This document shows, piece by piece, positions 31,372 through 48,854 of a stretch of DNA of 64,000 bases. The stretch lies in NCBI GenBank assembly GCA_963666275.2, contig CAXXOA010000002.1, positions 384,001-448,000 on the forward strand, written 5' to 3'. Below the pieces are notes generated by a model that saw only the letters and a program-made list of their open reading frames with translations, made no database searches and was not told the DNA's origin. A program made the translations under genes and the position numbers. Position 1 is the stretch's first letter, and each line of letters starts with the position of its first letter. Source of the DNA: Oceanispirochaeta sp. (GTDB taxonomy: Bacteria; Spirochaetota; Spirochaetia; DSM-2461).

Positions 31372-31465
31372 GATTTCCAGAATATGTGAAATTCCCTGTT
31401 TCTTGCAAGCTGAAAAAGATGAAATAACAGGGTCTATTGAATTTTTATCACCCGCCTGAGCCATA

Positions 31466-31494
31466 TTGACAGATTTCCGCTATTTCGCTAATAT
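31466..31494 (+). promoter_or_regulatory. Sigma-70 promoter of tRNA-Leu copy 2
   Basis: TTGACA-N17-TAATAT. Confidence 0.8.
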
Positions 31495-31509
31495 CCTCGA
31501 GTACCAATT

Positions 31510-31593
31510 GCCTGGATGGTGAAATTGGTAGACACGCTAGTTTCAGGGACTAGTGCTCGCAAGGGCGTGGAGGTTCGAGTCCTCTTCCAGGCA
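31510..31593 (+). tRNA. tRNA-Leu(CAG), copy 2, identical to 11478-11561
   Basis: Same 84-nt cloverleaf sequence. Confidence 0.97.
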
Positions 31594-31629
31594 AAAAGAT
31601 CCAATCTAACCGATTGGGTCTTTTTTTTT
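31594..31629 (+). terminator. Intrinsic terminator after tRNA copy 2
   Basis: aaaagatccaatc-taacc-gattgggtctttt followed by a T-run. Confidence 0.85.
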
Positions 31630-31647
31630 GCTTACGTATACAAAAAA

Positions 31648-31774
31648 CCTGGGAGAGGACTCGAAACGCAGGTACGGCGCGAATACATGCAGCGCAAATC
31701 GGCACGATGCCGATTTAGAACCGAAGTCGGCCGGGACTGAAGCCACAGGACGTGGCGGAGGGGACGGCGAGTCC
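31648..31774. repeat. Structured tRNA-linked element with an inverted copy of the tRNA 3' end
   Basis: cctgggagaggactcgaa matches the reverse complement of the tRNA 3' end at 17/18; GGACTCG...CGAGTCC termini; two internal hairpins. Confidence 0.65.
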
Positions 31775-31843
31775 GCTTTAATGCCTGAATGGCTGGATCA
31801 TACACCTTTTGATGAAATGGCCGATTTAAAATTGAAATTATCT

Positions 31844-33370
31844 CTATGTAGTAGTGAGCCTTTCTAATTCATTCATATACGTATTGAGCTTTTTTAATAC
31901 ATAATTTGCTATAATATGAGGCTCATCTTTATTTGTGTAATGAAACTCCATGCAGACTTGTTTATGAGGCATGTCGACGAAAATGTCTGGAATGACGTTT
32001 TTGATCCAAGGATGATATTGATCATAATCAACTTGATATTCTGTTGTCTCTCTCAGAACCTCACGTACACATTTGTTTAAAACTTTATCACTTCCACTTC
32101 CGCCTGAACTAATCCATTTTACAATATGTTCAAAAACGTCACTACCTTTTTCAAGAGCAACGAGTGCTGGACCACCTCTTCTCAACCCAGCATGCATGAT
32201 TTCTCCCATTAATTGTTTATATGGAGCTGTTCTTTTAAAAGTCTTCTTAGTTTGATATTTTCTTTTCCAGTCTTTAGGAGCACCTGCTTTTTCTAACAGG
32301 TCCATTAAATCTTTATTATCAGTATAAGCATATAATATAGAGATCAATGTATTTGTAGGCAAAAATAGTATTCTTGTTTTAATTGATCCATATAAAGCCA
32401 TTTGTAATCTTTTCGCATCCCAGTCTGCAGACTTTTGACCACTCCTAGCATATTCGTTTAACTTTTCATGAATTACAGTCCAACTATCTTCAATACGATC
32501 AGATTTTTTTACAAATTGGGAAACAACTCTTTCTGCTTCTTTATAACAAAATAAAAACCAGACTTCCGTCGTTTTGGGAATTGAGGCTCTTACATCATCT
32601 TGATATTTACTATTCTTTTTCCATTTTTCAATGGAAATATTTATATACTCTCTTATTGTTCTTTCTTTTATTGGTAATTTTTCAACAATTTCATCTATCT
32701 CAGTAAAATCATCGTATGTCATTCCAAACTCTGTGATGTCTTTTCCATCGTTCAGAACTGATATTGTTCTTATTGTAATATCTTTAAATTTATTTTTTTT
32801 AGGACCCGAAAAATTAATAATTTCATTGTCTTTAAGAAAAAGGGTTCCTGATACTTGTTGCGCATAATCTAGCATTGTTTCAACGTCTTCATAATTTGTA
32901 ACTGGCCATAAAATAAGCATAGGTGTTTTTCTTAGAAGACCGTTCAATTTCCTAAAAAATGCCTTAATTTCTTTTTCATCATATTCATCAAGATATTCCA
33001 AATAATCTATAACGATACATGTAGGTCCTAGATCTTTTTTCTCTATGGCTAATTTCTTATAAGATTGAATTTCTCTAAAAATACCATCAATATTTTCTGT
33101 ATAATCATTAGCATCAATTTGAAAAAATCCACTAATACCGATATGTCTTTTCCATGATAGAGACCTAATGAATGTAGATTTTCCAGTACCTGGAGTTCCA
33201 AGAATGAAAGATAGATTACCACCAACTTTTGAAGCACGCGCTATTAAACTGATTTTTTCTTCAACATCTGGAAGAGGCTCAATGAATTCCATCATTTTTG
33301 CATCTGTAGAGTTTTCTCCAAGAACTGTCTCAATTTCTTCAAAAGTTGAATATAAAACCATCTCTTCCAT
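31844..33370 (-). CDS. P-loop ATPase with a putative C-terminal PD-(D/E)xK-like nuclease domain; AT-rich
   Basis: Walker A GTPGTGKS, Walker B-like CIVIDYLE, C-terminal IPDIFVD...VCMEFHY; much more AT-rich than flanks. Confidence 0.75.
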   Translation of the reverse strand: MEEMVLYSTFEEIETVLGENSTDAKMMEFIEPLPDVEEKISLIARASKVGGNLSFILGTPGTGKSTFIRSLSWKRHIGISGFFQIDANDYTENIDGIFREIQSYKKLAIEKKDLGPTCIVIDYLEYLDEYDEKEIKAFFRKLNGLLRKTPMLILWPVTNYEDVETMLDYAQQVSGTLFLKDNEIINFSGPKKNKFKDITIRTISVLNDGKDITEFGMTYDDFTEIDEIVEKLPIKERTIREYINISIEKWKKNSKYQDDVRASIPKTTEVWFLFCYKEAERVVSQFVKKSDRIEDSWTVIHEKLNEYARSGQKSADWDAKRLQMALYGSIKTRILFLPTNTLISILYAYTDNKDLMDLLEKAGAPKDWKRKYQTKKTFKRTAPYKQLMGEIMHAGLRRGGPALVALEKGSDVFEHIVKWISSGGSGSDKVLNKCVREVLRETTEYQVDYDQYHPWIKNVIPDIFVDMPHKQVCMEFHYTNKDEPHIIANYVLKKLNTYMNELERLTTT

Positions 33371-33542
33371 TAGTTAACTCCTAAGTCACCTTTCGATAAT
33401 AGACAAAACAATTTTACTATCAAATGGATAAAAAGCAACTCTATTAGATCTTTTTGCATAATTAGGAAGATTAATTCTTTTCCAATACACTTTAATACCA
33501 GTGATGAGTAATATAAAAACTTCTTCTGAGATCTCCTTGATT

Positions 33543-33642
33543 TTAGTATTCCTCTTTTTTAACTGTTCCTCTTAAATCTCCCAGTCTCTGGAGAATGAGG
33601 CTTATACTCTTTCGCCTTCTTCTTAAGTCTTTCCCCCAACAT
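33543..33642 (-). pseudogene. Eroded XRE-type HTH regulator fragment
   Basis: MLGERLK, then a +1 frameshift gives RRRKSISLILQRLGDLRGTVKK, resembling XRE helices 1-2; early stop. Confidence 0.35.
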
Positions 33643-33696
33643 AGAAGTATAAATAATTCACAATTCACTAAAATGCGATATCATAAAAGAAAATCA

Positions 33697-33764
33697 TATA
33701 ACAGTCAGACATACGGGCTGACGATTTTTCAGAGACTGTCAGGTGTAACAGACTGACTGATACA
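33697..33764. repeat. Long imperfect palindrome (attC-like or operator)
   Basis: tataacagtcag ... ctgactgataca outer arms, inner ctgac/gtcag pair. Confidence 0.5.
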
Positions 33765-33783
33765 AAAATTAAGGACTGAAAAT

Positions 33784-34302
33784 ATGAATGGAGAGTTTTC
33801 TACTGGGAACCATCTGATCTCTGTGTATGACATTGAAAATTTCGTCAAAATTACAAAGAATTTATCGACCCCGGAGCTGTTTGATCTTATGAATCAGATA
33901 CAGATTCTAACGATTGAGGCCCTCAGGGAAAGGAAGCCAGTTGTGGTCAAAAACCTGGGAGACTCGAATCTTATGGTTTTTGATACAAACGGGATAGATT
34001 TAACAATCACTGCCCTGTATAAACTGAAGTCTGATCTGGAAGAATTTTTGAAAAGCCGGGGCATTGCTGTAAAAGTCAGTTTTTCCTCCCATTACGGGGA
34101 GATATCTGTGGGCCCATTCGGGGCGGAACCTTTCAGGCAGACCGATGCCTTCGGAGAGGAGCTGAACAGAGCCTTTCTTCTGAACGGAAAACCCTACAGG
34201 GGCAGGTTCACAATAAGCCCTGAGCTTTTCCGCAAACTGGGAGCTGACTCCAGAAAAAGATTCCATAAATTCACCCCTCAGATAATGTATACTTCCGAAT
34301 AG
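33784..34302 (+). CDS. Stand-alone class III nucleotide cyclase-like domain
   Basis: YDIENFV, VKNLGDS, HYGE, DAFGEELNRAFLL follow the cyclase motif order. Confidence 0.7.
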   Translation: MNGEFSTGNHLISVYDIENFVKITKNLSTPELFDLMNQIQILTIEALRERKPVVVKNLGDSNLMVFDTNGIDLTITALYKLKSDLEEFLKSRGIAVKVSFSSHYGEISVGPFGAEPFRQTDAFGEELNRAFLLNGKPYRGRFTISPELFRKLGADSRKRFHKFTPQIMYTSE

Positions 34303-34311
34303 AGAGGCAAA

Positions 34312-34842
34312 ATGAAAAACGCAGCATACATAGCAGCCTCACTGGATGGCTATATCGCAACGGAAGACGGGGGGCTCGACTGGCTGGAGAGCATTCCGAA
34401 TCCGGAAGGGAGTGATTTCGGGTATGAAGCCTTTATGGACTCCATCGACGCCCTGGTGATGGGGAGAAAGACTTTTGAAAAAGTCCTAACCTTCGGAACC
34501 TGGCCCTACAGAAAACCAGTTTTTGTTCTCACCGGCACTCTGCAGAGCCTACCGGAAACTCTTCCCGGGAAAGTCAGCCTGGTAAGGGGAGACCTCCCGG
34601 GAATTGTGCAGGAACTCCATGAACAGGGGTATTTCAATCTCTACATCGATGGAGGTCAGACCATACAGAGCTTTCTCCGGGAAGATCTGATCGATGAATT
34701 GATCATTTCCACAGTATCGGTTCTGCTGGGCCGGGGCATTTCCCTGTTCGGAGCTCTGACGGAAATCCGGAAATTTAGAGTCGTAAAATCAGAAAAGCTC
34801 AATGATCATCTTAGCCAGACTCACTATAGAAAAGAGAGATAA
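34312..34842 (+). CDS. Dihydrofolate reductase / RibD C-terminal family protein
   Basis: IAASLDGYIA, MGRKTFE, IDGG, LIDELII, LGRGISLF. Confidence 0.92.
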   Translation: MKNAAYIAASLDGYIATEDGGLDWLESIPNPEGSDFGYEAFMDSIDALVMGRKTFEKVLTFGTWPYRKPVFVLTGTLQSLPETLPGKVSLVRGDLPGIVQELHEQGYFNLYIDGGQTIQSFLREDLIDELIISTVSVLLGRGISLFGALTEIRKFRVVKSEKLNDHLSQTHYRKER

Positions 34843-34878
34843 GGGAATGCATTTTTTCGTTTTAGAAAATCTTTTTTT

Positions 34879-35520
34879 TCAGTAAAGCTGTAGCAAATAT
34901 CCCCAGACTCCAGAAAAGATAAAAAGTCTGTAGGAGATACTCCACATGACAATCCCTATCACCGCATTCAGAATACGCCAGGTGATCGCTTTCCTGAAAA
35001 GCGGAGCGGCCAGGCCGGCGCCCAGAGTTAGCCCGAAGAACCAGAGATACGACATGACCACAGCCCCGGCCCCGAAAAGGTAGCGCCCGTAACCGGGAAA
35101 GGTTCCGCTTATCCCTCCCAGGAGAACAACCGTGTCCAGATAGACATGGGGATTCAGCAGGGTGAGAGCCAGAGTGGTAAGAACAGCCTGTTTCCGGGTT
35201 GTCAGCCCTGTGTTCCCCTGCCCGTCCAGACCTTCAGAATTTTTTACCACAGCAACCAGACTTTTCAGTCCGTAAAAGAAGAGAAATCCCGCTCCTCCTG
35301 CCGAAGCCACAGTGATCAACAGGGGTGAATGCTCTATAAGAGTCCCCATCCCGGCAATCCCGGCTCCAATAAGAATGGTATCGCAGAGAGCACAAACCAT
35401 GGACACAGTCAGATGATGCTCTTTTTTAATCCCCTGTGTAAGCACAAAAGCATTCTGGGATCCTATGGCAATGATCAGCCCCGCTCCCGTTCCCAATCCT
35501 GTAAAAAATGGAGTAAACAT
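34879..35520 (-). CDS. argO: LysE/ArgO amino-acid exporter
   Basis: LIIAIGSQNAFVL, LLNPHVYLDTV. Confidence 0.9.
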   Translation of the reverse strand: MFTPFFTGLGTGAGLIIAIGSQNAFVLTQGIKKEHHLTVSMVCALCDTILIGAGIAGMGTLIEHSPLLITVASAGGAGFLFFYGLKSLVAVVKNSEGLDGQGNTGLTTRKQAVLTTLALTLLNPHVYLDTVVLLGGISGTFPGYGRYLFGAGAVVMSYLWFFGLTLGAGLAAPLFRKAITWRILNAVIGIVMWSISYRLFIFSGVWGYLLQLY

Positions 35521-35546
35521 ACCGGAAGAGTACAGAAAAATAAAAA

Positions 35547-35590
35547 ATTAATGAAATTAATATTACAAATATATAATAAGCAATACTAAT
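35547..35590. promoter_or_regulatory. LysR (ArgP/LysG) boxes between divergent genes
   Basis: ATTA-N7-TAAT (35547-35561) and ATAA-N7-TAAT (35576-35590). Confidence 0.55.
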
Positions 35591-35599
35591 ATAGATTCC

Positions 35600-36514
35600 A
35601 TGATCGACTATAAATTTCTTGAAGCCCTCGCCGCCGTGATCGAGCAGAAAGGATTTGAAAGAGCGGGAGAGGTTCTTCATATTACCCAGTCCGCGGTCAC
35701 CCAGAGGATCAGGCAGCTGGAGGAATTAACCGGACAGGTTCTGCTTATAAGGAGTCAGCCCCCTGCGGTGACAGCGGCGGGCCGCCTTCTGTTGGAACAC
35801 CTTAAAAAGGTGAGAGTTCTTGAACAGGAATTCTCCCTTCGCTCAGGTTTATCGGGGTCACCCCAAAGGCCGCAGCTGTCTCTTGCTGTGAATGCAGACA
35901 GCCTGGCCACATGGTTCTCTTCTGTAGTCAGCCGGTATTTCTCTCTTTATTCGGGATATCTGGATATAAGAAGTGCGGATCAGGACGTTACTCACAAACT
36001 TATGACCGATGGAGACGTTATGGGCTGTATCAGCTCAATGGAGTCATCATTCAGAGGATGCCGGAAGGATTTTCTGGGCAGCATGGTCTACCGCTTTGCT
36101 TCAACCCGGAATTTTGCCGGTACCTACTTTCCGGAAGGAGTGGATGAGAGTTCATTCAACAGAGCCCCCAAACTGAATTTTGATAGAGACGATCAGCTCC
36201 TTGCCAAGTGGGCATGTCAGTTTTTTAAAGGTGCCCATCCCTTTGAAAACTCCCATATGATTCCCTCATCAGAGCAGTTTCCCATCCTGATAGGGGCAGG
36301 AGCAGTATGCGGTATGCTTCCTGAGGATCAGTTCGAAGCTTTACGCTCTGATTTTGATCTTATGGACCTGTCGCTGGAAAAGCCTGTTTCGACGCCTCTT
36401 TTCTGGCATAGATGGAGCCTTCCTTCACAAGAACTGGATTCTCTGAGTGAAATAATCAGAGAAGAAGCACGAAAGTCTCTGTCGCAGGAACTCCCCTCTG
36501 TTTCTTCCAGATAG
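35600..36514 (+). CDS. argP: LysR-family regulator ArgP/LysG
   Basis: LHITQSAVTQRIRQLE, AVNADSLATWF, LFWHRW; divergent from the exporter. Confidence 0.92.
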   Translation: MIDYKFLEALAAVIEQKGFERAGEVLHITQSAVTQRIRQLEELTGQVLLIRSQPPAVTAAGRLLLEHLKKVRVLEQEFSLRSGLSGSPQRPQLSLAVNADSLATWFSSVVSRYFSLYSGYLDIRSADQDVTHKLMTDGDVMGCISSMESSFRGCRKDFLGSMVYRFASTRNFAGTYFPEGVDESSFNRAPKLNFDRDDQLLAKWACQFFKGAHPFENSHMIPSSEQFPILIGAGAVCGMLPEDQFEALRSDFDLMDLSLEKPVSTPLFWHRWSLPSQELDSLSEIIREEARKSLSQELPSVSSR

Positions 36515-36583
36515 AAAAATCTTTTTAGGAAAAAAAACCGGCGCCCTGTAACACAGAACGCCGGACTCATATGTCAAAAGTAT

Positions 36584-37876
36584 TTATATAGAGAACAGAT
36601 TGAACACTCCGAGGAATGCCAGGATGGCACATATGATCGGAATGATGATTGCCACAGGAACCAGTGAGATAGACAGCTGATCCTTGATCTTTTCATCAGG
36701 ACAACCGGCAACAACCATGGCACCTCCCGTAGAGAAGGGAGAAATGGCGGAACTCATAGCACCGATGAAAACACAGGAAAACAGCATAACCGGATTCAGT
36801 CCCATTGCGGTTGCCAGGCCGGGCACCATGGGGTACAGGAGCGGACAGACAACACTGGTTCCGCTGGAAAAGAAGCTCAGGAATGCGGAAAATCCGACCA
36901 GAGCGACAGGAACAAGAATTTTGGGAATGTTGTTACTCATAATATTGGCAATGGCATCGGTCATTCCCGCATCCTGGGCTACTTTCAGAAGCATATACAT
37001 ACCGGCAATCAGAAGGATTGTATTCATGGGCAGCTTATGGATGATCTCTTTTTCATTCCCCAGTTTCAGCATAACACTGACAAAAGCACCGATAATCATA
37101 ACGGACTGGGGCTGACAGATCTGGGCCAGTGTTTTAATGAAAGGAGCTTTCACCCAGGCGTTGAGAATGGCGGGAATCACCATCAGAGCCAGAGCCACTA
37201 TCATAACTGTCAGCTGTTTTTTCTGAAGAGGGCTGAAGGGTTCGGGTTTATCAACAACGACCTTGTTTGCCTTGTATCCTTTGAAAACAAAGTAGGCGAT
37301 CACCATGATGATGATCTGCTTGATACAGGAGTTCAGCCATACCATCATTCCCATGCTGGTGGCATGGTCTCCATAGATTGTATCTGCAATCAGACCGGTA
37401 GAGATAACACCGCCGAAGCCGTTGATGGGGTTATCCCCACCCATCAGAGTCGCACAGCTGATAAAGATGGCAATCAGAATCGGATTCAGACCGGCCGCCA
37501 AGCCTATGGCAAAGGCAATGGGACCGATAATGGCAGGCGTCGCTGCACCGGCACCCATAAAAGCAACTACCGCACAGGTGACAGCAATGACCCAGGGGAT
37601 CAGTTTGGCATTGCCGTGCAGGGCATGAAGGAGATGTTTTGAAAGAACATCCATGGTACCGTTGCTGGTGGCGTAGTTGAAGAACAGCCCAATAGCCAGA
37701 AGAAAGAACACGATCCTTACAGGAAAGTAGTTGATAACTGTAGAAACTCTTCCTCCCATAAGAAAGACCATGATGATGAAAGCAAGCCCCATAGCCAGAA
37801 GCCCCGGATTCACTTTCATTTTCCATCCGACGATGATTGCTCCGATAATGGCAATCAATGAAATTGTCAAAACCAT
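36584..37876 (-). CDS. Ion-transporter-superfamily carboxylate carrier (MatC/SLC13-like)
   Basis: About 12 TM helices, N-terminal VNPGLLA, SFFSS and ISPFSTGGA motifs. Confidence 0.8.
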   Translation of the reverse strand: MVLTISLIAIIGAIIVGWKMKVNPGLLAMGLAFIIMVFLMGGRVSTVINYFPVRIVFFLLAIGLFFNYATSNGTMDVLSKHLLHALHGNAKLIPWVIAVTCAVVAFMGAGAATPAIIGPIAFAIGLAAGLNPILIAIFISCATLMGGDNPINGFGGVISTGLIADTIYGDHATSMGMMVWLNSCIKQIIIMVIAYFVFKGYKANKVVVDKPEPFSPLQKKQLTVMIVALALMVIPAILNAWVKAPFIKTLAQICQPQSVMIIGAFVSVMLKLGNEKEIIHKLPMNTILLIAGMYMLLKVAQDAGMTDAIANIMSNNIPKILVPVALVGFSAFLSFFSSGTSVVCPLLYPMVPGLATAMGLNPVMLFSCVFIGAMSSAISPFSTGGAMVVAGCPDEKIKDQLSISLVPVAIIIPIICAILAFLGVFNLFSI

Positions 37877-37993
37877 ATATAATACTCCTTTTAAATTGGT
37901 TGCAACTTTAATTGAGAGTTGCCCGGACCCTCAATTTTACTACCCAGGCAACTCTGTGATCACTCCTTCCCCCAGAACGGGGAGAGTGCCTCA

Positions 37994-40405
37994 CTACATC
38001 TGATGAGCCATCCTCTCAATGACTTCATCCTGAATACCTTCTGTCAGGCGGGTAAAGTAGGCACTGTAACCGGCCACACGGACAATCAGTTCGGGATGTT
38101 CGTCGGGATTCACCTTGGCATCCACCATCTCTTCCTTGTTCACAATATTGAACTGAATGTGTTTTCCACCGTTGGTCAGATAGGTCTTAATGACTGTACC
38201 GAGTTTGTTCAGATCGCTTTCGGTTTTCATATTGGAGGGAATGAACTTCATATTCATCAGGGTTCCCTGATAGGGATCCTGGTTCACTTTCATGGCGCTC
38301 TGAAAAACAGCCAGCGGTCCATTCACATCCTGTCCGTGATCGGGAGACAGAGACGCATCTGCCAGGATCTCTCCGCCTTTCCGTCCGTCAGCGGTAGCTC
38401 CCGTACAGGCTCCTCCGGGCTGATGGGCGGAAATGGAGATGGCATTGGGTTTGAGAGAATCGCCGTAGGCACAGGGCAGGCTCAGGCAGGTGTCTGCATG
38501 GAGCTGATAAATCTCCGCGACAACCGCATCAACCTCATCGTTGTTATTTCCGTATTTGGGAATGCTTTTGAAATCAGCCTGCATCTGCTCATAGCCGACC
38601 CAGTCCGCATCCAGTGCTTCAAGGAGCTGCTGCATAGTGTATTTCTTCTCGTCAAAAACAAGCTTTTTAATAGCGTACAGAGCGTTTCCCGTATTCACTC
38701 CGCCTACAGCCCCCAGTACCGCTCCGTTTTCAAACTCGAACCGGCGGTTGAACATATCTTTTCCTGACTTCACACCGTCTTTCATAAGGGAGGAACGGAA
38801 TACATCGGGAAACAGATTCCTTTCAGCAATCAGCTCCACATTGATCCTTTCGTTGGCCATTCCCATCAGATGCCGTATCTGGGAAAATACAGCTTCCTTG
38901 AACTCTTCATAGGTTTTCATCTTTGTCACATCGCCGCTTCTGATTCCCACCATCTCTTCGGTATAGCGGCAGTAACCGTCATGCATACAAATATCCATAG
39001 CCTGGGGAATGATAAAAAAGCAGGCTACCTGAGTTCGGGTCACAGTGGGCACATTGGCATCCACACAGCCTGTAGCCACATAGTCCCTGGCAACCTCCAC
39101 GGGGATTCTGTTCTTCTCACTCTGAGAGGTAAAAAATTTAATATTCGATTCGTCTCCCAGAAAGGCGGGAAGTCCCAGTCCGCTCTGGATGCACTTCAGC
39201 GCTTTGAGCATCAGTTTTTCCGGTGTGTTTTTATGAACTCTTACAGTCAGAGTGTGGTGAGGCAAATGGGTATCCAGTGCGGCATCCAGGAGCAGATAGG
39301 TCAGTTCATTGGTGGCATCGCTGCCGTCTGCTTTCTGCCCGCCGATGGTCCAGTTGTACCATTTGGCCATACCCGCATTCTTGGTTCTGTTGGCCTTTCC
39401 GGAAACACGGTTAATCTTCATCACCTTGCAGCGCATGATCTCCAGAAGTTCCAGAACCTCATCGTCATTCATGCGGCCGCTTTCGATATCTGCTTTATAG
39501 AATGGATACATATACTGATCAAAACGTCCTGCCGTAGAGGTAGGAGAGGGACAGATCATCAGGAAAGTGAACCAGAAGGCCTGCAGGGCTTCCTGAAATG
39601 TCTCTGCCGGCTCATAGGGCACCTTGCGGCAGATCCTCGCCATTTCCAGAAGTTCGGCTTTCCTTTTTTCATCTTTTTCACTTCCCCCCATCTCTTCGGC
39701 CAGGTCGGCATAACGTCCGGCAAAACGGACCCAGGCTTCGAAAACGATAATGACGCCTTCCCAGAAATCCCGTTTTTCAATACTGTCCGCCGCATCATAG
39801 CGCATATCTTTCAGGCACTGTTTTGCTTCTTCTATAACTGACCTGGCCCCGCCGTTCAGAATGCGTGCATAGTCAACGGCCACCAGAGAGAATCCCGGTC
39901 CCAGTCCGTATCCGGACATGGCAAATCCGCCGCCGGATCCTCCTGTCTTATCTTTCCAGGGAGGAAGGATTGTTCCGGATTTCATAAAAGGCCAGAGCCT
40001 TTCGTTCATTCCCAGAGATTTACCCATGGTTTCAATCAGGGTGCTGTTAAGGGAGTTCCCGGCAAAACGTTCATTGAGCTCATAGAGTTCTTTTTCATCT
40101 TCCGGATCTATGGTATAGATCTCGCTTTTCAGAGATTCCACTTCGTCTTTTGTCCAGACTCCGTATTCATACTGCATCTCCAGACCGAAAGGTTTGCTGG
40201 CTCCGGATCCGCATAGAAGATCTTCGGGTTCGATGAAAATATCAATATTGCCCAGCACATGAGCATGGAGCTTGGAACGTCTGAGCAGCATGGGTTCTCC
40301 CGCAGTTTTATCCAGAGATTCACTGGCCAGGCGGAATAATTGAACACACAGAGGGTACTTGTTTACCCTCAGACTTTCTTTCATTCTCTCAACTCTTTCT
40401 GTCAT
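37994..40405 (-). CDS. Glycyl radical enzyme of unknown specificity (PFL2/eliminase-like)
   Basis: 803 aa; FQEALQ, GRFDQYMYPFY, Cys loop TGCVD, PKYGNN, glycyl loop LIVRVAGYSAYF. Confidence 0.93.
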   Translation of the reverse strand: MTERVERMKESLRVNKYPLCVQLFRLASESLDKTAGEPMLLRRSKLHAHVLGNIDIFIEPEDLLCGSGASKPFGLEMQYEYGVWTKDEVESLKSEIYTIDPEDEKELYELNERFAGNSLNSTLIETMGKSLGMNERLWPFMKSGTILPPWKDKTGGSGGGFAMSGYGLGPGFSLVAVDYARILNGGARSVIEEAKQCLKDMRYDAADSIEKRDFWEGVIIVFEAWVRFAGRYADLAEEMGGSEKDEKRKAELLEMARICRKVPYEPAETFQEALQAFWFTFLMICPSPTSTAGRFDQYMYPFYKADIESGRMNDDEVLELLEIMRCKVMKINRVSGKANRTKNAGMAKWYNWTIGGQKADGSDATNELTYLLLDAALDTHLPHHTLTVRVHKNTPEKLMLKALKCIQSGLGLPAFLGDESNIKFFTSQSEKNRIPVEVARDYVATGCVDANVPTVTRTQVACFFIIPQAMDICMHDGYCRYTEEMVGIRSGDVTKMKTYEEFKEAVFSQIRHLMGMANERINVELIAERNLFPDVFRSSLMKDGVKSGKDMFNRRFEFENGAVLGAVGGVNTGNALYAIKKLVFDEKKYTMQQLLEALDADWVGYEQMQADFKSIPKYGNNNDEVDAVVAEIYQLHADTCLSLPCAYGDSLKPNAISISAHQPGGACTGATADGRKGGEILADASLSPDHGQDVNGPLAVFQSAMKVNQDPYQGTLMNMKFIPSNMKTESDLNKLGTVIKTYLTNGGKHIQFNIVNKEEMVDAKVNPDEHPELIVRVAGYSAYFTRLTEGIQDEVIERMAHQM

Positions 40406-40523
40406 CTACTCTCTCCTTATATTTCATCAGTAGTTCTTGTTGTTTAGCTTTGTTTAACCTGGAGAAACCCTAACATGGGTTTTTCAAAGCTTAAAAATTA
40501 AATCTTTATTGGAAATGAAATTC

Positions 40524-40570
40524 TGTGATGTCCATACATTTCATCCAGGGTGAAATGTGCGGATTGCACA
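40524..40570. promoter_or_regulatory. Tandem candidate PucR/CdaR operator boxes upstream of the GRE
   Basis: TGTG-N7-TACA (40524) and TGTGC-N5-GCACA (40556), 32 bp apart. Confidence 0.5.
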
Positions 40571-40679
40571 GACCTCATAAAAAAGAGAGAGAAAACCTAA
40601 AAAAATCGACAAATAGAAATAATGCCCCTATAATTTGGTCAATATCCAAACAGAATAGGGAAAATAGGTTAGGACGTTT

Positions 40680-42245
40680 ATGCTTTTTCTTTCACACATT
40701 CTGCAGCAGCTTGAGCCGTATTTAATCTTTGCCAGTAAAAAACAGCCCTACAGTACATGCCCGTCCAGAATCGAATTTATTGAGAATCAGAAAGCCTTTA
40801 CCTCTGACAGAACATGGATAGGTTCGGGGGAGCAGGCTGTCAATCAGCTTGAAGGAACCAGCATTGAACCGGGGGCCGTTATATTTATATGTGACAGCAA
40901 GGCCGGGAACACCAGCCAGGACAGACAGAAAAATTTCTCCTGGATATATGTCAGCTGTCCCGCCTCGACCCTTTTCAACATTCTCAATGCCTCGTTATGT
41001 CAGATCCAGCAGTGGACGGAAACCTTCTGTGCAGCTTCCGACCAGTCTCTCCAGAAAACTCTTTCCTGTGCCGCTGATCTTTCAGCAACATCTCTTATTC
41101 TCATTAATCCCGATAACCGCATGATTCTGAGCAGCAGACTGGATGAGAGCACCTACCTGAAAGAGAAACTGGACGATTCCGGAAGCATAGCGGGATATTT
41201 TCTGGAGGATATATTCTCAGGAGAAAAATCCCGGAATCTGCCTGTGAAATATTCAGTTCCTGATAGTCAGGTCGCCGTTTATGGTCAGAAAATATTCCAT
41301 GGAGAGACACATATAAGTACTCTACTCCTGGAAGACAGCCGCAGCCGGACGGATATGGATTTTCCGGGGTTATGCTTTTCTCTTGTCCAGGGCCTGTACC
41401 GGCATATAATCCCTACCAATATTCTTCGTCTGGGAACAAATACAATGAAATTTCAGGAAATCTGGCATGAGATTATGACGCAGAAACTCACCCAGTCCTT
41501 TGATGTCCTGAAAGCCCTGGACGGCCTTCCCTATCCGACGGAGATATTTGTCAGGGTGATTGTCGTCACCTTCCAGAACATGGATACTGAACAGACCCCT
41601 TTCAGTTTTGTGCTGGCTCAGCTCCGGGATGTTTTACCCGACTGCAATATGACTGTGTATGAGAATGAAATCATTATACTCAGGACCTACTGTGAAAGAT
41701 GCTTTGAACCAAACCTTGAAAAAAACCGCCTTCTGGCCATACTGGAACGGCATAACTGTTACGTGGGCATCAGCAATGGTACCAGAGACTACGGAACCCT
41801 CCGATCCCTCTATCTACTGGCAAAGAATACGATCCTGCTGGCAAAAAAACTCAGTCATAAACAGGGGGAAAGAATTTTTTTCCATGAAGAGTTCTGGATC
41901 TACAACGCCATCGATATGTGCGCCCATAAATTTGTCGAACTCCACCATCATGATGACATTATCTATCTGATCCATCCTGCGATAATCCATATCACAAGAT
42001 ACGACAAACAGCACAATACCAATCTGAGGGATACCTTATTCTACTATCTGCTGAATGACCGGAACCTTGTGAAAACTGCTACGGTCACATTTGCCCATCG
42101 CAACACGGTACTCAACAAAGTGAATAAAATTGACAAAATTATCAATCTGGACCTGGAAGACGGTTCTCTCCGGCAGAGGCTGATTTTCTCCTGTGAGATG
42201 ATTCGCTACTACGAAAAGTACATGAATAAACAGCTGAAAGTCTGA
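40680..42245 (+). CDS. PucR/CdaR-family transcriptional activator
   Basis: C-terminal YDKQHNTNLRDTL...HRNTVLNKVNKI HTH; divergent from the GRE. Confidence 0.87.
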   Translation: MLFLSHILQQLEPYLIFASKKQPYSTCPSRIEFIENQKAFTSDRTWIGSGEQAVNQLEGTSIEPGAVIFICDSKAGNTSQDRQKNFSWIYVSCPASTLFNILNASLCQIQQWTETFCAASDQSLQKTLSCAADLSATSLILINPDNRMILSSRLDESTYLKEKLDDSGSIAGYFLEDIFSGEKSRNLPVKYSVPDSQVAVYGQKIFHGETHISTLLLEDSRSRTDMDFPGLCFSLVQGLYRHIIPTNILRLGTNTMKFQEIWHEIMTQKLTQSFDVLKALDGLPYPTEIFVRVIVVTFQNMDTEQTPFSFVLAQLRDVLPDCNMTVYENEIIILRTYCERCFEPNLEKNRLLAILERHNCYVGISNGTRDYGTLRSLYLLAKNTILLAKKLSHKQGERIFFHEEFWIYNAIDMCAHKFVELHHHDDIIYLIHPAIIHITRYDKQHNTNLRDTLFYYLLNDRNLVKTATVTFAHRNTVLNKVNKIDKIINLDLEDGSLRQRLIFSCEMIRYYEKYMNKQLKV

Positions 42246-42388
42246 AAACAGGCCCCCTTTTGCGTCCTCTTCTGCCCCTCCCCCAAGGGGTGTAATCATA
42301 CCAAACACATCCCCTGAAATAAGTTAGCCCTGCAAAGATGCCGGTCGGATTTTTGACTTAATCAGTCATGTTTATTAGTTTATAAAGT

Positions 42389-44398
42389 ATGGAACACAAG
42401 AAAAACATGCAATCACATCAAAAGCACGGGAACCATCATAGTCATACAGATCACCATAGAATGATGATCAGAGATTTTCGTAAACGCTTTTACATAACTC
42501 TTGTTCTGGCGATTCCAGTACTGGCTCTCTCCCCGCTCATTCAGAACGTTCTGGGATTTTCCCTTCAGTTTCCGGGAGATTCCTATGCGGTGTTTCTTTT
42601 TGCCTCTGTCATCTTCTTTTACGGAGGCTGGCCCTTTCTAAAAGGTCTGGCAGATGAGCTTAAAAACAGAAGTCCGGGAATGATGACTCTTATAGGAATG
42701 GCCGTTTCCATTGCCTTCCTCTACAGTGCTGCCGTTACCTTCGGCCTGGAAGGGACCCCCTTCTACTGGGAACTGGCGACACTGATCGCTATCATGCTGG
42801 CCGGCCACTGGATCGAAATGGCCTCGGTCCTAAGCGCCTCGTCGGCTCTTGAAAAACTGGCACGGCTCATGCCTTCGGAAGCCCACAGGAAAAAGGGAGA
42901 TAAAACGGAAGACATCCCTCTGTCGGATGTTGAAAAAGGAGATCTCCTCCTTATAAAGCCCGGAGAAAAGATCCCTTCCGACGGAACCATCACAGACGGG
43001 GAGAGCTATATTGACGAATCCATGCTCACCGGGGAATCCAGGCCGGTTAAGAAGACGGAGGGAGATTCTCTTATCGGAGGATCAATCAACGGAGACGGCG
43101 CCATCGAGCTTCAGGTGGACAGCACAGGGGAGGAGTCCTACCTTTCCACGGTGATAAACATGGTACAGGATGCCCAGGCGGTGAAATCAAAAACTCAGGC
43201 CCTGTCGGACAGGGCTGCTTTCTGGCTGACCATTGTAGCCCTCACAGCGGGGTTTACGACCCTTGCAGCCTGGCTTCTGGCAGGGTGGGATCTTCAGTTT
43301 GCCATAACAAGGATGGCCACTGTGATGGTTATTACCTGTCCCCATGCTCTGGGGCTGGCAATCCCTCTGGTTGTGTCGGTATCCACTTCCAAATCCGCTC
43401 AGAACGGACTTCTTATCCATAACAGAACCGCCTTTGAAAACGCCCGGAAAATTACAACCGTTGTATTTGATAAGACCGGAACCCTTACAGAGGGAAATTT
43501 CGTCATCCAGTCCATAGAGACATATGGAGAAAATTTTGATGAAGAGGCCATTCTGAAAAATGCGGCGGCCCTGGAAGTCCGATCGGAACATCCCATTGGG
43601 AAGAGTATCCTGGAAGGAGCCTCTGAAAGGGATATAGAACCGGAAAAGGTTGAGGATTTCCAGTCTGTAAAGGGAAAGGGCGTCAGCGGTACAGTATCAG
43701 GAAGAAAGGTGGAGGTTGTCAGTCCCGGTTACCTTGAAGAACAGGGGATTGAGATTCCCGGGAAATCCGAGGATAAAGGAAATATCACTAGGGTTTTTGT
43801 CCTGATAGAAGGATCCCTGGCAGGATCGATCTCCCTATCAGATACAATCCGCCCCGAATCCCGCCGCTCGATCCGCACCCTGCAGAAAAAGGGAATCAAA
43901 TGCTGGATGCTCACAGGAGACAACAGGGCAACAGCAGAAGCTGTGGCATCCGAGCTGGGTATGGATGGTGTTTTTGCCGAAGTCCTTCCTGATGAAAAAC
44001 AGGAAAAGATCAAAGAACTCCAGAATAAAGGGGAGTTTGTGGCAATGACGGGAGACGGAGTCAATGACTCTCCAGCACTGGCTCAGGCGGACATTGGAAT
44101 CGCCGTCGGCTCAGGAACAGATGTGGCCGCCGCATCGGCGGATATTATCCTTATGAACTCCAATCCTCAGGATATCAGTGCCCTGATTATCTTCGGCAGA
44201 GCCACCTACAAAAAAATGGTTCAGAATCTCATCTGGGCCAGCGGGTACAATATTATAACCATCCCCCTGGCGGCAGGAGTCCTTTTTCACTGGGGAATCC
44301 TGCTTTCCCCGGAAGTCGGCGCTATCCTGATGTCCCTCTCCACAGTCATTGTGGCAGTGAATGCCCGGTTTCTCAAACTGCATAAAGAAATAGACTGA
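42389..44398 (+). CDS. copB: Copper-exporting P1B-3 ATPase
   Basis: His-rich N-terminus, TGES, CPHALGLA, DKTGT, SEHP, GDGVND, YN and MSLS. Confidence 0.92.
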   Translation: MEHKKNMQSHQKHGNHHSHTDHHRMMIRDFRKRFYITLVLAIPVLALSPLIQNVLGFSLQFPGDSYAVFLFASVIFFYGGWPFLKGLADELKNRSPGMMTLIGMAVSIAFLYSAAVTFGLEGTPFYWELATLIAIMLAGHWIEMASVLSASSALEKLARLMPSEAHRKKGDKTEDIPLSDVEKGDLLLIKPGEKIPSDGTITDGESYIDESMLTGESRPVKKTEGDSLIGGSINGDGAIELQVDSTGEESYLSTVINMVQDAQAVKSKTQALSDRAAFWLTIVALTAGFTTLAAWLLAGWDLQFAITRMATVMVITCPHALGLAIPLVVSVSTSKSAQNGLLIHNRTAFENARKITTVVFDKTGTLTEGNFVIQSIETYGENFDEEAILKNAAALEVRSEHPIGKSILEGASERDIEPEKVEDFQSVKGKGVSGTVSGRKVEVVSPGYLEEQGIEIPGKSEDKGNITRVFVLIEGSLAGSISLSDTIRPESRRSIRTLQKKGIKCWMLTGDNRATAEAVASELGMDGVFAEVLPDEKQEKIKELQNKGEFVAMTGDGVNDSPALAQADIGIAVGSGTDVAAASADIILMNSNPQDISALIIFGRATYKKMVQNLIWASGYNIITIPLAAGVLFHWGILLSPEVGAILMSLSTVIVAVNARFLKLHKEID

Positions 44399-44412
44399 TC
44401 CGTCAGTTCCCC

Positions 44413-44453
44413 AGAAACCCTCTGTATGATAAACCGCAGAGGGTTTCCTTTTT
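44413..44453 (+). terminator. Intrinsic terminator after copB
   Basis: gaaaccctctg...cagagggtttc followed by T-runs. Confidence 0.7.
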
Positions 44454-44568
44454 ACTCCCGTTTTTTTTTCAAATCTTCAATCTTCAAATATTCAAACTAT
44501 AAAAAAACTTCTGTATCCTAAAACTAACCAATAGTCAGAAAGATACCTCCGCTAGAAAGGAAGAAAGA

Positions 44569-44994
44569 ATGGAAGCTGTAGCAGATAAAACGGAAAGAAA
44601 GATGGAAGTATCCCTTCCCATCAAAGTAAAAAGTTATGAAATCGATGTGATGGGAATTGTGAGCAACATCAATTATATAAAATACTTCGAAGATATCCGG
44701 ACGGAATTCCTGGACCGGTACTATCCCTACGATGAGATGGTCAGAGAGGGGATTTCTCCCATTCTGATGCATACGGAAATTGACTATAAATTCCCTCTGA
44801 CCATCTATGATAAACCTGTAGGCACAGCCTGGGTCACACAGCTTGAAAAGATGCGCTGGGAATTCCAGTTTGAAATTGCCTGCGGAAAGAGGATCCATGC
44901 CACGGGCCTCCAGAGAGGCACCTTTTTCGACATGAATAAAAACCGCCCCACCCGGGTACCGGAACGTTTATCAGAGCAGTTCCTCAGGGAATAG
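44569..44994 (+). CDS. Acyl-CoA thioesterase (4HBT/YbgC hotdog family)
   Basis: EIDVMGIVSNINYIKYFEDIR. Confidence 0.88.
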   Translation: MEAVADKTERKMEVSLPIKVKSYEIDVMGIVSNINYIKYFEDIRTEFLDRYYPYDEMVREGISPILMHTEIDYKFPLTIYDKPVGTAWVTQLEKMRWEFQFEIACGKRIHATGLQRGTFFDMNKNRPTRVPERLSEQFLRE

Positions 44995-45030
44995 CCGCAG
45001 CACCCGGCAGGGATGAACAAACTCCTGATT

Positions 45031-46221
45031 TCAACTTTCTGCCGCAGCCTCAAGAGCCTGATCTATATCGTTGAGAATATCCCGGGAATCTTCCAGCCCC
45101 AGAGAGAGCCTGACCAGACCGTCTGAAATACCCGATGCCGCCCTTTCCTCAGGAGAAAGTTTGGCGTGGGTTGTCGTTGCCGGATGGGTGGCAATACTCC
45201 GGGAGTCCCCCAGATTGGACGTTAAAGAGATCATCTTCAGATTATTGAGGAATTTCATAGCGCCCTGACTGCCCCCGGGAAGTTCGAAGGATACAAGGGC
45301 TCCCCCTTTCTTCATCTGCTTTTCTGCAAGACTGAAACCGGGATGAGAAGGAAGCCCCGGATAGAGAACCCTCCCGACTCCTCTGCGGGATTCCAGAAAT
45401 TCCGCGGTCTGCCTGGCATTATCGCAATGCCTGTCCATCCTCAGTGAGAGAGTCTCCAGGCTCTTGGAGAGAATCCAGGCATTAAAGGGAGAGAGAGCCG
45501 GACCGGTCTGTCTTGTGAAAAACCGGATTTCATCTATTGTTTCCCTTTGTCCCAGGATCGCTCCTCCCAGAACGCGGCCCTGTCCATCCAGAAACTTTGT
45601 TGCCGAATGAAGGACAATATCCGCTCCCAGAACTGCAGGATTCTGTAAAACCGGAGTAGCAAAGCAGTTATCCACAGCCAGAAGAATACCCCTGGAACCT
45701 GCCAGTTCTGCCAGGGCTCCTATATCCAGGATTTCGAGGCAGGGATTGGAGGGTGTCTCAATAAACAGCATTTTTGTTTCCGGCCGCAGCGCTTTTTCCC
45801 ACTCCTTTGGATCAGAAGAATCCACATAGGTAAAATCGATTCCCCAACGGGGAAGGATCCGTGTAATGATCTGATGGGTAGAACCGAATAGTGCCCGGGA
45901 GGCGACCAGATGATCCCCCTGTTTCAGAAGGGATGCAAGAGCTCCGAACATGGCGGCCATACCGGAAGCAGTGGCCAGACCGTCTTCGGTTCCCTCGAGA
46001 AAACAGAGCTTGTCAATCAGCTCATCCGTGTTGGGATTGCCGTAGCGGGAATACACAAGCCCCTCTTCCTCACCGGCAAAAGTATCTCTTGCCTGTTCCG
46101 CCGAATCAAAGACAAAACTGGAAGTCAGATAAAGGGGCTGGGAGTGCTCCCTGAAGTTTGATCGGGCCTGCTGTCTTCTAATGGCCCCGGTGTCGGGCTG
46201 CCAGGAATCATTTATGGGCAT
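45031..46221 (-). CDS. metZ: O-succinylhomoserine sulfhydrylase-like PLP enzyme
   Basis: YLTSSFVF, YSRYGNP, ETPSNP, HSATKFLDGQGRVLGG, NLGD, HPATTTH. Confidence 0.85.
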   Translation of the reverse strand: MPINDSWQPDTGAIRRQQARSNFREHSQPLYLTSSFVFDSAEQARDTFAGEEEGLVYSRYGNPNTDELIDKLCFLEGTEDGLATASGMAAMFGALASLLKQGDHLVASRALFGSTHQIITRILPRWGIDFTYVDSSDPKEWEKALRPETKMLFIETPSNPCLEILDIGALAELAGSRGILLAVDNCFATPVLQNPAVLGADIVLHSATKFLDGQGRVLGGAILGQRETIDEIRFFTRQTGPALSPFNAWILSKSLETLSLRMDRHCDNARQTAEFLESRRGVGRVLYPGLPSHPGFSLAEKQMKKGGALVSFELPGGSQGAMKFLNNLKMISLTSNLGDSRSIATHPATTTHAKLSPEERAASGISDGLVRLSLGLEDSRDILNDIDQALEAAAES

Positions 46222-46664
46222 CAGCGGTCTCCTTCCCGGGCCACGTCGGCCTGGTGTATTTCATAACTGTAGGTTATATCAACCGAAGCCTTCAGCATTT
46301 CAACCACAGAGCAGTACTTGGTCACAGCAAGCTCCACGGCCCTTCCGGCTTTTCTGTCATCCACCCGGCCGAAAAGGTGATAGGTCAGATGGATGCTCTT
46401 AAAGGGATGGACATCCCCTGTATCAAAACGCTCGCCTTCAATATTGATCTGAATGTCTTTCAGATCCTGTCTCTGTTTTTTCAGTATGGCAACCAGATCC
46501 ATGACAGAACAGGATCCCACAGAAGCAAGGACCAGTTCCATCGGCCGAAATCCTCCCTGTACTCCTCCGATTGAGGGAGGTCCATCTATTAGGATCTCAT
46601 TCCCGTCGCTGTTGAGAGCGGCAAAATTGACATCATCATTAATCCGTTTTAACTGTACTTTCAT
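46221..46664 (-). CDS. OsmC-family protein
   Basis: RPMELVLASVGSCS and KYCSV two-Cys motifs. Confidence 0.9.
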   Translation of the reverse strand: MKVQLKRINDDVNFAALNSDGNEILIDGPPSIGGVQGGFRPMELVLASVGSCSVMDLVAILKKQRQDLKDIQINIEGERFDTGDVHPFKSIHLTYHLFGRVDDRKAGRAVELAVTKYCSVVEMLKASVDITYSYEIHQADVAREGDR

Positions 46665-46705
46665 CTATTTCCTCTCTTCCCTGTTTTCTCACATAACAGG
46701 AGAAT

Positions 46706-47605
46706 TCAACTGTAGAGACCTGTTGTCAGGTACCTGTCACCCCGGTCGCAGATGACAGTCACCACGACCCCGCCACAGACACCTTTTTTATCCAATTCCT
46801 GAGCCACCTGCAGGGCAGTATACACGTTTCCTCCGCTGGAGATTCCACCGAAGATCCCCTCTTCCCGGGCAAGCCGCCTCATGGTCTCTACCGCATCAGA
46901 GCGGGAAACTTCAATGGGCCGGTCAATCCGTTCGGGTTCATAAATGGCGGGAAGGTATTTTTCAGGCCAGGCCCGGATACCGGGAATACCGCCATCCGCA
47001 TCGGGTCTTACCGCAATGATTTCAATCCGGGAATTCTGCTCTTTCAGAAACTTTGATACTCCCATAATGGTTCCGGTGGATCCGGTGGAAGCCACAAAAT
47101 GGGTGATCTTTCCTGTAGTGTCATCCCATATTTCTGGGCCTGTCGTCGTATAATGTGCCTTGGGATTGGAGGGATTGCCAAACTGGTTGAGTATGACTCC
47201 CCGGCCGCTTTTCTCCATCTCCCGGGCTTTTTCAATAGCCCCCTCCATTGCCTGATCCCGTGCGGTCAGGACAATTTCCGCGCCGAAGGCTTTCATGGTA
47301 TCCACCCTTTCACGGCTCATATGTTCAGGCATAACCAGGATCATTTTCATACCCCTCAGTCCGGCCACCATAGCCAGGGCAATCCCTGTATTTCCACTGG
47401 TCGCTTCAATCAGGGTATCCCCTTTCCGGATTCTGCCGCTCTCTTCCGCATCCTTAATCATCTGAAGTGCCGGCCGATCCTTGACGGATCCTCCGGGATT
47501 CTGACCTTCCAGTTTTACATACACTTCCGTATTGCCCGTATAAATATGATTCAGTCTCACAAGGGGCGTTTTTCCAATGAGCTGTTCTATTCCTATATAG
47601 GTCAT
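46706..47605 (-). CDS. cysM: Cysteine synthase B
   Basis: KLEGQNPGGSVKDRPA, EATSGNTG, IPGIRAWP, CDRGDRYL. Confidence 0.92.
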   Translation of the reverse strand: MTYIGIEQLIGKTPLVRLNHIYTGNTEVYVKLEGQNPGGSVKDRPALQMIKDAEESGRIRKGDTLIEATSGNTGIALAMVAGLRGMKMILVMPEHMSRERVDTMKAFGAEIVLTARDQAMEGAIEKAREMEKSGRGVILNQFGNPSNPKAHYTTTGPEIWDDTTGKITHFVASTGSTGTIMGVSKFLKEQNSRIEIIAVRPDADGGIPGIRAWPEKYLPAIYEPERIDRPIEVSRSDAVETMRRLAREEGIFGGISSGGNVYTALQVAQELDKKGVCGGVVVTVICDRGDRYLTTGLYS

Positions 47606-47647
47606 CTATATCTCCTCAAATGCGCCGGATACCTTATTATTACAATA

Positions 47648-47672
47648 TACTATAATTTCTATCAATATAGTA
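47648..47672. promoter_or_regulatory. Palindromic candidate operator upstream of cysM
   Basis: TACTATA-N11-TATAGTA. Confidence 0.4.
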
Positions 47673-47785
47673 GTATATGTTTCCAGTGAATTTTCCGCCT
47701 GTTTCCCCGTGTCAGTTTTTTCTTCAGAAAAAGAAAGATTGCTTTTCTCTGTATCCCTGTAATAATGGAAGAGAGGAGGATTTCT

Positions 47786-48649: not shown

Positions 48650-48710
48650 AAGTACCGGGGTTGTAATATGATTACCGATGTATAAATGACGCGATGAATC
48701 TTTTTCAGAA

Positions 48711-48756
48711 TGTAAACGCTTTCATTATTTAATGAATATTATTGTGAACGCTTTCA
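48711..48756. promoter_or_regulatory. Two LacI-family (cre-like) operators
   Basis: TGTAAACGCTTTCA (48711) and TGTGAACGCTTTCA (48743). Confidence 0.75.
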
Positions 48757-48854
48757 TTTTCCTCTATATTTCAAAGGAATACACCTCAGATCAGACTCAT
48801 ATTTGAAATTTTTGGAACAGGAGACTGAATCCAGTTTCCGGGAGCAAGGTAAAA

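Follow-up and report, generated by a model that had tools for sequence, protein, structure and literature searches.

By its sequence, a 64,000-nucleotide stretch of an Oceanispirochaeta sp. genome (contig CAXXOA010000002.1, positions 384,001 to 448,000; hereafter the window) holds a real, intact and regulated member of a large uncharacterised clade of glycyl radical enzymes (GREs), named here for its Cys-x-Asp motif and possibly representing a new catalytic class. The GRE gene is accompanied by genes for a carboxylate carrier and a transcription regulator. The features of this module and of the enzyme are as follows.

37994..40405, minus strand: GRE, 803 amino acids, subtype A of the Cys-x-Asp clade (open reading frame, Pfam, PDB search, AlphaFold model)
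36584..37876, minus strand: MatC/CitMHS (SLC13-like) carboxylate carrier, 430 amino acids, 117 bp downstream of the GRE gene (Pfam)
40680..42245, plus strand: PucR/CdaR-type transcription regulator, 521 amino acids, divergent from the GRE gene (Pfam HTH; relative at 42 of 80 clade loci)
39059..39067, minus strand: Cys447-Val-Asp449 thiyl loop, ATGCVDAN (motif, homologue alignments)
39359..39388, minus strand: Arg340-x-Lys342 ... Trp349 motif before strand 3 (114, 115 and 116 of 116 distant homologues, respectively)
39035..39037, minus strand: Arg457, predicted carboxylate anchor and inferred counterpart of Arg508 of benzylsuccinate synthase (BSS) and of MASS Arg492 (alignment register)
38069..38071, minus strand: Gly779, predicted glycyl radical site (complete GRE fingerprint, as in PMC13232127)
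36538..36564, minus strand: terminator-like hairpin of 12 pairs and a T run, closing the GRE-carrier unit (consensus scan, in which such sites were not above chance across the region overall)

The three open reading frames (ORFs) were confirmed at these positions in the ORF list. An initial annotation had described an intact 803-residue GRE with an ATGCVDAN loop and an RVAGYS glycyl loop, a carrier on the same strand and a divergent PucR/CdaR regulator, and the motif positions (Cys447, Asp449, Gly779) and Pfam domains bear this description out. The GRE matches the PFL-like domain with 486 bits (E 3e-145; cut-off 24) and Gly_radical with 96 bits (cut-off 22), while the carrier contains CitMHS and MatC_N and the regulator PucR HTH_30. 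The GC content of the three genes (45–49%) is similar to that of the genome (48%), and the carrier is 85% identical to the one adjoining the GRE orthologue in locus L035. An AlphaFold model of the GRE made from 53 clade sequences (pLDDT 86.7) has the ten-stranded barrel fold, and matches solved GRE barrels in Foldseek with a TM score of 0.9 at 25–32% identity.

Asp449 is one of several clade-wide residues. Among the 120 best homologues (79–94% identity) 119 carry Cys-Val-Asp and the remaining one Cys-Val-Val; Arg340, Lys342 and Arg457 are kept in all 120 and at all 80 genome loci of the clade, where the loop always reads Cys-x-Asp (Cys-Leu-Asp in one). When the most distant paralogue was used as the search sequence, 120 proteins came back; 4 partial or fused rows were dropped, leaving 116 full-length sequences at 37–51% identity to the query. 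Trp349, Cys447, Ser657 and Gly779 are invariant in this distant set, whose other counts are 114 for Arg340, 115 for Lys342, 112 for Asp449 and 80 for Arg457. Conservation of the Asp among homologues, on which the initial annotation had made its proposal depend, thus extends well beyond close relatives; since the four exceptions in the distant set have Glu, an acid occupies this position in 116 of 116, which argues for a catalytic base.

The clade spans gut Clostridia, spirochaetes, sediment Chloroflexi, Desulfobacterota and Bathyarchaeia, and source names in the distant set include Thermodesulfobacteriota, Dehalococcoidales, Dethiobacter and Bathyarchaeia. Named records from cultured gut bacteria are Mediterraneibacter gnavus, Intestinimonas massiliensis, Clostridium sp. 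OM02-18AC and Fusibacter ferrireducens. The closest relatives of the window GRE (87%) are Spirochaetia records; paralogues at 42–55% identity are also present in the 80 loci, 12 of which hold at least two. The clade divides into at least six subtypes at 40–55% identity and, with a Cys-Leu-Gly variant from a Novosphingobium plasmid included, sits on a long stem (SH-aLRT 100 in a rapid IQ-TREE analysis of 47 rows). Its members are widely but thinly spread: apart from the seed genome, a true member was present in 1 of the 399 Clostridia genomes sampled (a second hit reads Cys-Val-Glu), a count that is a lower bound because two candidates were scored per genome, and 300 other genomes of the window's phylum gave no hit above 36% identity.

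The Novosphingobium PP1Y variant (L088:9920-12415), a clade member in an aerobe, has an RIGGCS loop and adjoins transposase genes, and no activase was recognised among the ORFs of 22 kb. Within about 17 kb, loci L149 and L004 (G301:C34) contain four distinct Cys-x-Asp paralogues and one recognised activase, together with the DUF4125, DUF4037 and TPR trio that recurs near clade loci. At L006:1716-2813 a single ORF runs from the beginning of a CapA-like gene into part of a paralogous GRE, as a result of either a deletion or faulty assembly. A further unnamed group consists of spirochaete GREs (L094, L108, L116) in which the Cys loop reads Cys-Asp-Glu and the glycyl loop RVVGY.

Known relatives and the predicted active site

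With its best solved relatives about 31–35% identical (at most about 35%), the window GRE does not stand at high identity to a characterised enzyme. It widely missed all NCBIfam equivalogs: CutC, HypD, HpsG and HpfG at 391–483 bits against 1000–1100, the decarboxylases IAD (434 of 1100) and HPAD (345 of 1150), and pyruvate formate-lyase (TIGR01255, 99 of 994), which has adjacent Cys-Cys where the window GRE has a single Cys. Section 5, on classification, of the June 2026 review PMC13450708 gives Cys-x-Glu as the motif of C–O, C–N and C–S eliminases, of isomerases, and of HPAD and IAD; the statement in the initial annotation that decarboxylases use other residues therefore needs correcting. The same section describes no Cys-x-Asp enzyme, and the initial annotation likewise named no characterised GRE with Asp at Cys+2.

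In a full-length PDB search glycerol dehydratase (417 bits) came ahead of arylacetate decarboxylase (AAD) of Olsenella scatoligenes (7E7L; 407 bits), whereas AAD leads over residues 172–803 (405.8 versus 385.2 bits) and is also best over 324–524. AAD is likewise a single-subunit GRE of similar length and the best barrel sequence match, and in the printed alignments it shares with the window GRE four gap states in which glycerol dehydratase differs. However, the N-terminal 170 residues of the window GRE are unaligned to AAD, whose Cys loop reads Cys-Val-Leu-His and which, in the printed alignments, has no counterpart of Arg340, Lys342, Asp449 or Arg457. The relationship to AAD is no more than suggestive, because a profile search puts CutC and glycerol dehydratase above it and Foldseek ranks diol dehydratases at the top, with the poorly refined AAD structure 46th.

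The 1,2-eliminases and isomerases (glycerol dehydratase 1R8W, propanediol dehydratase 5I2G, CutC, IslA, HpsG, YbiW, PflD) share with the window GRE the fold (TM 0.90–0.91), the single Cys and an acid at Cys+2, but the window GRE is 28–33% identical to them, has Asp for Glu and Leu at the position of His164 of glycerol dehydratase, and carries about 20 extra Gly-rich residues before strand 1. The X-succinate synthases BSS and MASS (4PKC, 9O8U) would be alike in having, by inferred register, an Arg at the fumarate-binding position on the strand after the Cys loop. They differ in that the window GRE, 25–26% identical to them, has Asp at Cys+2 and cationic residues on the strand-3 loop; moreover, a scan for Cys patterns on the same strand within 700 bp found small Fe-S subunits like theirs at 0 of the 80 loci.

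We mapped the active site by alignment to the Clostridium butyricum glycerol dehydratase locus (L089). His164, His281, His332 and Tyr339 of that enzyme fall on Leu174, Pro288, Lys342 and Trp349, and Glu435, Asp447 and Tyr640 on Asp449, Val460 and Ile656. In this alignment no His replaces the general acid of the His164 type. Numbers and roles of His164, Cys433 and Glu435 follow PMC13450708, according to which the Glu of Cys-x-Glu acts on the substrate hydroxyl in eliminases and isomerases. Pro467 aligns with index 517 of the BSS chain 4PKC, and a 10-residue ungapped extension puts Arg457 on index 507. The +1 offset that would make this index Arg508 rests on Gly829 and on the end register of the alignment. 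Residue counts for MASS are consistent with Cys477 and Arg492 if a putative offset of +11 is applied. BSS Arg508 and MASS Arg492 hold one fumarate carboxylate, according to PMC12358834. Given the cationic residues, the putative placement of Arg457 at the fumarate Arg position and the Leu174, the prediction is that one or two carboxylates bind in the site and that it has no His acid.

Regulation, activation and neighbouring genes

Three predicted elements lie between the GRE and regulator genes.

40524..40538, unstranded: operator box 1, TGT-R-N7-Y-ACA palindrome, 133 bp upstream of the GRE gene
40556..40570, unstranded: operator box 2, TGT-R-N7-Y-ACA palindrome, 32 bp from box 1
40606..40634, plus strand: Sigma-70-like promoter match (11 of 12) preceding the regulator gene, a consensus match only

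Given that the spacing of the boxes is fixed, the simplest reading of the tandem palindromes is a putative operator for the PucR-type regulator. No second exact pair occurs in the 5.27 Mb genome, which has 140 single boxes, and the pair was found in 0 of 30 shuffled sets. At the 76 of 80 loci with sufficient upstream DNA, a pair lies no more than 300 bp ahead of the GRE gene at 17 of 42 with PucR and at 3 of 34 without it (all three on short contigs), in a count whose pattern was derived from the window itself and whose related loci are not independent. This conserved putative tandem operator connects the regulator with the GRE. A short hairpin (AAACCC / GGGTTT, window 40465-40482) is seen between the operator and the GRE start.

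The 'dedicated activator' of the initial annotation is a transcription regulator, and no radical-SAM activase was found among the ORFs at 30000-50000 of the window. The notion of a compact three-gene module stands in that carrier and regulator travel with the GRE (both are present at 20 of 43 loci having at least 4 kb on each side), but the three genes do not suffice by themselves, since an activase would have to be supplied in trans. The window's genome (G000) contains six PFL-like genes; its five activase hits each adjoin one of the five GREs other than the window's. One of these activases, on contig C3 (G000:C3:54753-55682), lies next to a Cys-Leu-Asp paralogue (55% identity) and another MatC carrier. 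It has 65% identity with the activase adjoining the L035 orthologue and, of the genome's five, is the best for 43 of the 48 loci having an activase; likely, judging by these similarities, it activates the window GRE in trans. The sixth GRE of the genome (L086, G000:C2:87701-89518) is very divergent (22% identity), reads Cys-Gln-Glu, has a non-canonical glycyl loop that aligns as MRIHGTF, and adjoins its own activase.

We counted neighbouring genes by tblastn over up to 10 kb at the 80 loci. Activases were found at 48, PucR at 42, MatC at 30, CapA-like genes at 16, CocE/feruloyl-esterase-like hydrolases at 15, MmgE/PrpD at 12, URO-D-like genes, CarA-like CoA transferases and flavoenzyme reductases at 10 each, CarC-like dehydrogenases and TctA at 7 each, and HGD-type dehydratases at 4. 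The MatC carrier is optional, or swapped for TTT, TRAP or ABC systems in many loci, and the carriers adjoining clade GREs are of carboxylate types. The best hit of MmgE is IDS epimerase, and that of the CapA-like protein is the MslH epimerase family. CarA, CarC, MmgE, CapA, MatC, PucR and TctA were all absent from 34 non-clade GRE loci (391 kb, mostly one family), where URO-D-like genes occurred in 2 and CocE in 1. Clade motifs were present at 25 of 64 metagenome loci, with CapA at 4 of these, MatC and PucR at 3 each, and MmgE and CocE at 2 each; at L197 a clade GRE adjoins LigM (vanillate demethylase) and benzoylformate decarboxylase, both over the cut-off.

The L056 dehydrogenase has caffeyl-CoA reductase CarC (6FAH) as its best PDB hit (631 bits versus 391 for the next), and the six other CarC-like dehydrogenases are 56–74% identical to it. 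The gene order at L056 (CoA transferase, ligase, dehydrogenase, EtfB, EtfA) is that of carABCDE, listed for the caffeate reduction operon in bioRxiv 2020.01.23.904417, and a PadR regulator lies alongside. The same order and a close match to CarC of Acetobacterium woodii adjoin clade GREs in several gut Clostridia, whereas the A. woodii operon, in the description available, contains no GRE.

Upstream of the C3 paralogue in the window's genome lie HadBC-like dehydratase, CaiB, ligase and GlcDF-like genes, and downstream an esterase, TTT genes and then galactarate and glucarate dehydratase genes. Contig C2 of the same genome has a cluster of CapA-like, HGD-type dehydratase, two CaiB, URO-D-like, TRAP and ligase genes without a GRE (L145, G000:C2:2128108-2141264), and this gene set flanks a GRE in L069 and L071. 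At the paralogous locus L087 a metallo-beta-lactamase-fold hydrolase, subclass B3-like (L087:14068-14910; 172 bits versus a cut-off of 240), lies between esterase and DUF3237 genes and is probably catabolic.

Candidate reactions

The reading that we tentatively favour is that the window GRE is a radical C–O lyase (1,2-elimination) that would act on a carboxylated plant conjugate taken up by the cell and release its hydroxycinnamate or phenol unit. The conserved acid at Cys+2, the missing His and the cationic residues fit 1,2-elimination of a leaving group not needing protonation from a carboxylated substrate. The neighbouring genes point to carboxylated hydroxycinnamate- or lignin-derived compounds, a substrate class that we consider reasonably probable.

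In such a pathway the regulator would sense the substrate and turn on the GRE and carrier genes, the carrier would bring in the (di)carboxylate, and the activase adjoining the C3 paralogue would install the Gly779 radical. With the carboxylates clamped by Arg340, Lys342 and Arg457, the Cys447 thiyl radical would abstract H from the carbinol carbon, Asp449 would deprotonate the hydroxyl in place of the eliminase Glu, and the resulting ketyl would expel a leaving group (acyloxy or aryloxide) from the adjacent carbon, one good enough that no His acid would be needed. Candidate substrates are caffeoyl- or feruloyl-tartrate, -aldarate and -quinate esters, and carboxylated beta-aryl ethers from ferulate or lignin cross-links. 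Diferulates are released and metabolisable by gut bacteria, as stated in a rumen review (PMC9108465).

Several points weigh against the C–O lyase. No CarA-like gene is seen at 70 of the 80 loci, many of which hold just an activase and the GRE, and searches of the window's genome found neither CarA nor CarC, nor the Etf pair, PadR, LarA or MmgE. It is possible that the neighbouring genes serve other clade paralogues and not subtype A. It is also possible that the Car-bearing loci descend from one mobile cassette; because of this, and because the control loci are mostly of one family, the contrast between clade and control loci cannot be read as a statistical test. Hydroxycinnamates could also be released by an esterase, with no radical chemistry, and the nearest solved relative over residues 172–803 is a decarboxylase.

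Close behind comes this last possibility, an AAD-like radical decarboxylase, which we regard as a serious but doubtful alternative. Its substrate would be a (di)acid bearing an aryl, aryloxy or benzyl substituent, from which the enzyme would remove CO2, with Asp449 donating a proton as has been proposed for the Glu of HPAD and IAD. The carrier would exchange substrate for product and the cell would gain a proton gradient, a role proposed for arylacetate decarboxylases (PMC13285125), and the minimal modules of GRE and carrier suit an excreted product. The alignment to AAD described above, with its shared gap states, is consistent with this, and FastTree joins the clade to HPAD-like proteins with support 0.895, on long branches and in a tree from which AAD is absent. 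However, in the printed alignments AAD lacks Asp449, Arg340, Lys342 and Arg457, the IAD and HPAD equivalogs were missed by a wide margin, and the caffeate-reduction genes downstream at some loci better suit an enoate product.

Rather unlikely, in our view, is a dehydratase or isomerase for a free hydroxy-polycarboxylate like tartrate, hydroxycitrate, glucarate or galactarate, which the esterases encoded alongside would liberate from plant esters, with paralogues handling different stereoisomers. Carriers of the MatC, CitMHS and TTT types, MmgE/PrpD, LarA-like and GlcDF-like neighbours, and the galactarate and glucarate dehydratase genes that follow the C3 paralogous locus would suit such a function, as would the diol dehydratases at the top of the Foldseek ranking and the 12 loci with two or more paralogues. 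But the site has no His general acid for water as a leaving group, and the two dehydratases encoded nearby are ordinary ones of Fe-S and enolase-type chemistry. Enzymes of these two kinds already perform the dehydration of hydroxy-polycarboxylates.

We consider C–C chemistry on a succinate core, like that of X-succinate synthases, unlikely. It would cleave hydroxycinnamate dimers (cyclobutane truxillate or truxinate, or 8-8' diferulate) to cinnamate monomers, or join a polar C–H substrate to fumarate. The putative placement of Arg457 at the fumarate-binding position speaks for it, as do the MmgE/PrpD genes, which some clade loci share with alkylsuccinate synthase islands (PMC13685792); the abundance of paralogues and the epimerase families would be in keeping with dimers that occur as stereoisomers, and a cinnamate product would feed the CarABCDE-like genes. 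Against it, no small Cys-rich subunit was found on the same strand within 700 bp at any of the 80 loci, BSS and MASS score low overall, Arg457 is missing in 36 of the 116 distant members, and a literature search found no paper on microbial truxillate cleavage.

It is very unlikely that the window copy is an inactive orphan, an intact gene whose product no activase of the genome recognises: PMC13450708 describes each activase as specific for its GRE, and the window GRE alone of the genome's six has no neighbouring one, but its catalytic residues, operator, terminator and carrier are all intact, 10 of 43 well-flanked loci likewise show no activase, the 12 multi-paralogue loci have one activase for several GREs in 6 cases and two in none, and the C3 activase has 65% identity with the one beside the L035 orthologue.

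A broader proposal, which we rate as rather improbable, is that the Arg-x-Lys / Cys-x-Asp clade as a whole comprises anaerobic radical lyases for phenylpropanoid cross-links, whose paralogues would break beta-aryl ether or dimer C–C bonds of ferulate- or lignin-derived acids while MmgE/PrpD and CapA-like neighbours funnel the stereoisomers. If true, this would fill a gap by providing a way to open the linkages of plant phenolics without oxygen in guts and sediments; every new GRE class to date has revealed new anaerobic chemistry. The search is narrowed to carboxylated plant phenolic compounds, an activase is named for pairing with the GRE and an operator is given for an inducer screen, and the question is therefore directly testable.

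Genes flanking the module

The module is flanked by genes for a LysE exporter and a LysR regulator (window 34879-36514) on one side and for a P-type metal ATPase (42389-44398) on the other, none of which was seen near orthologues. Further out, a 508-residue ORF with a weak AAA match (31844-33370) lies where GC content is low (32% at 32001-34000), in what may be acquired DNA.

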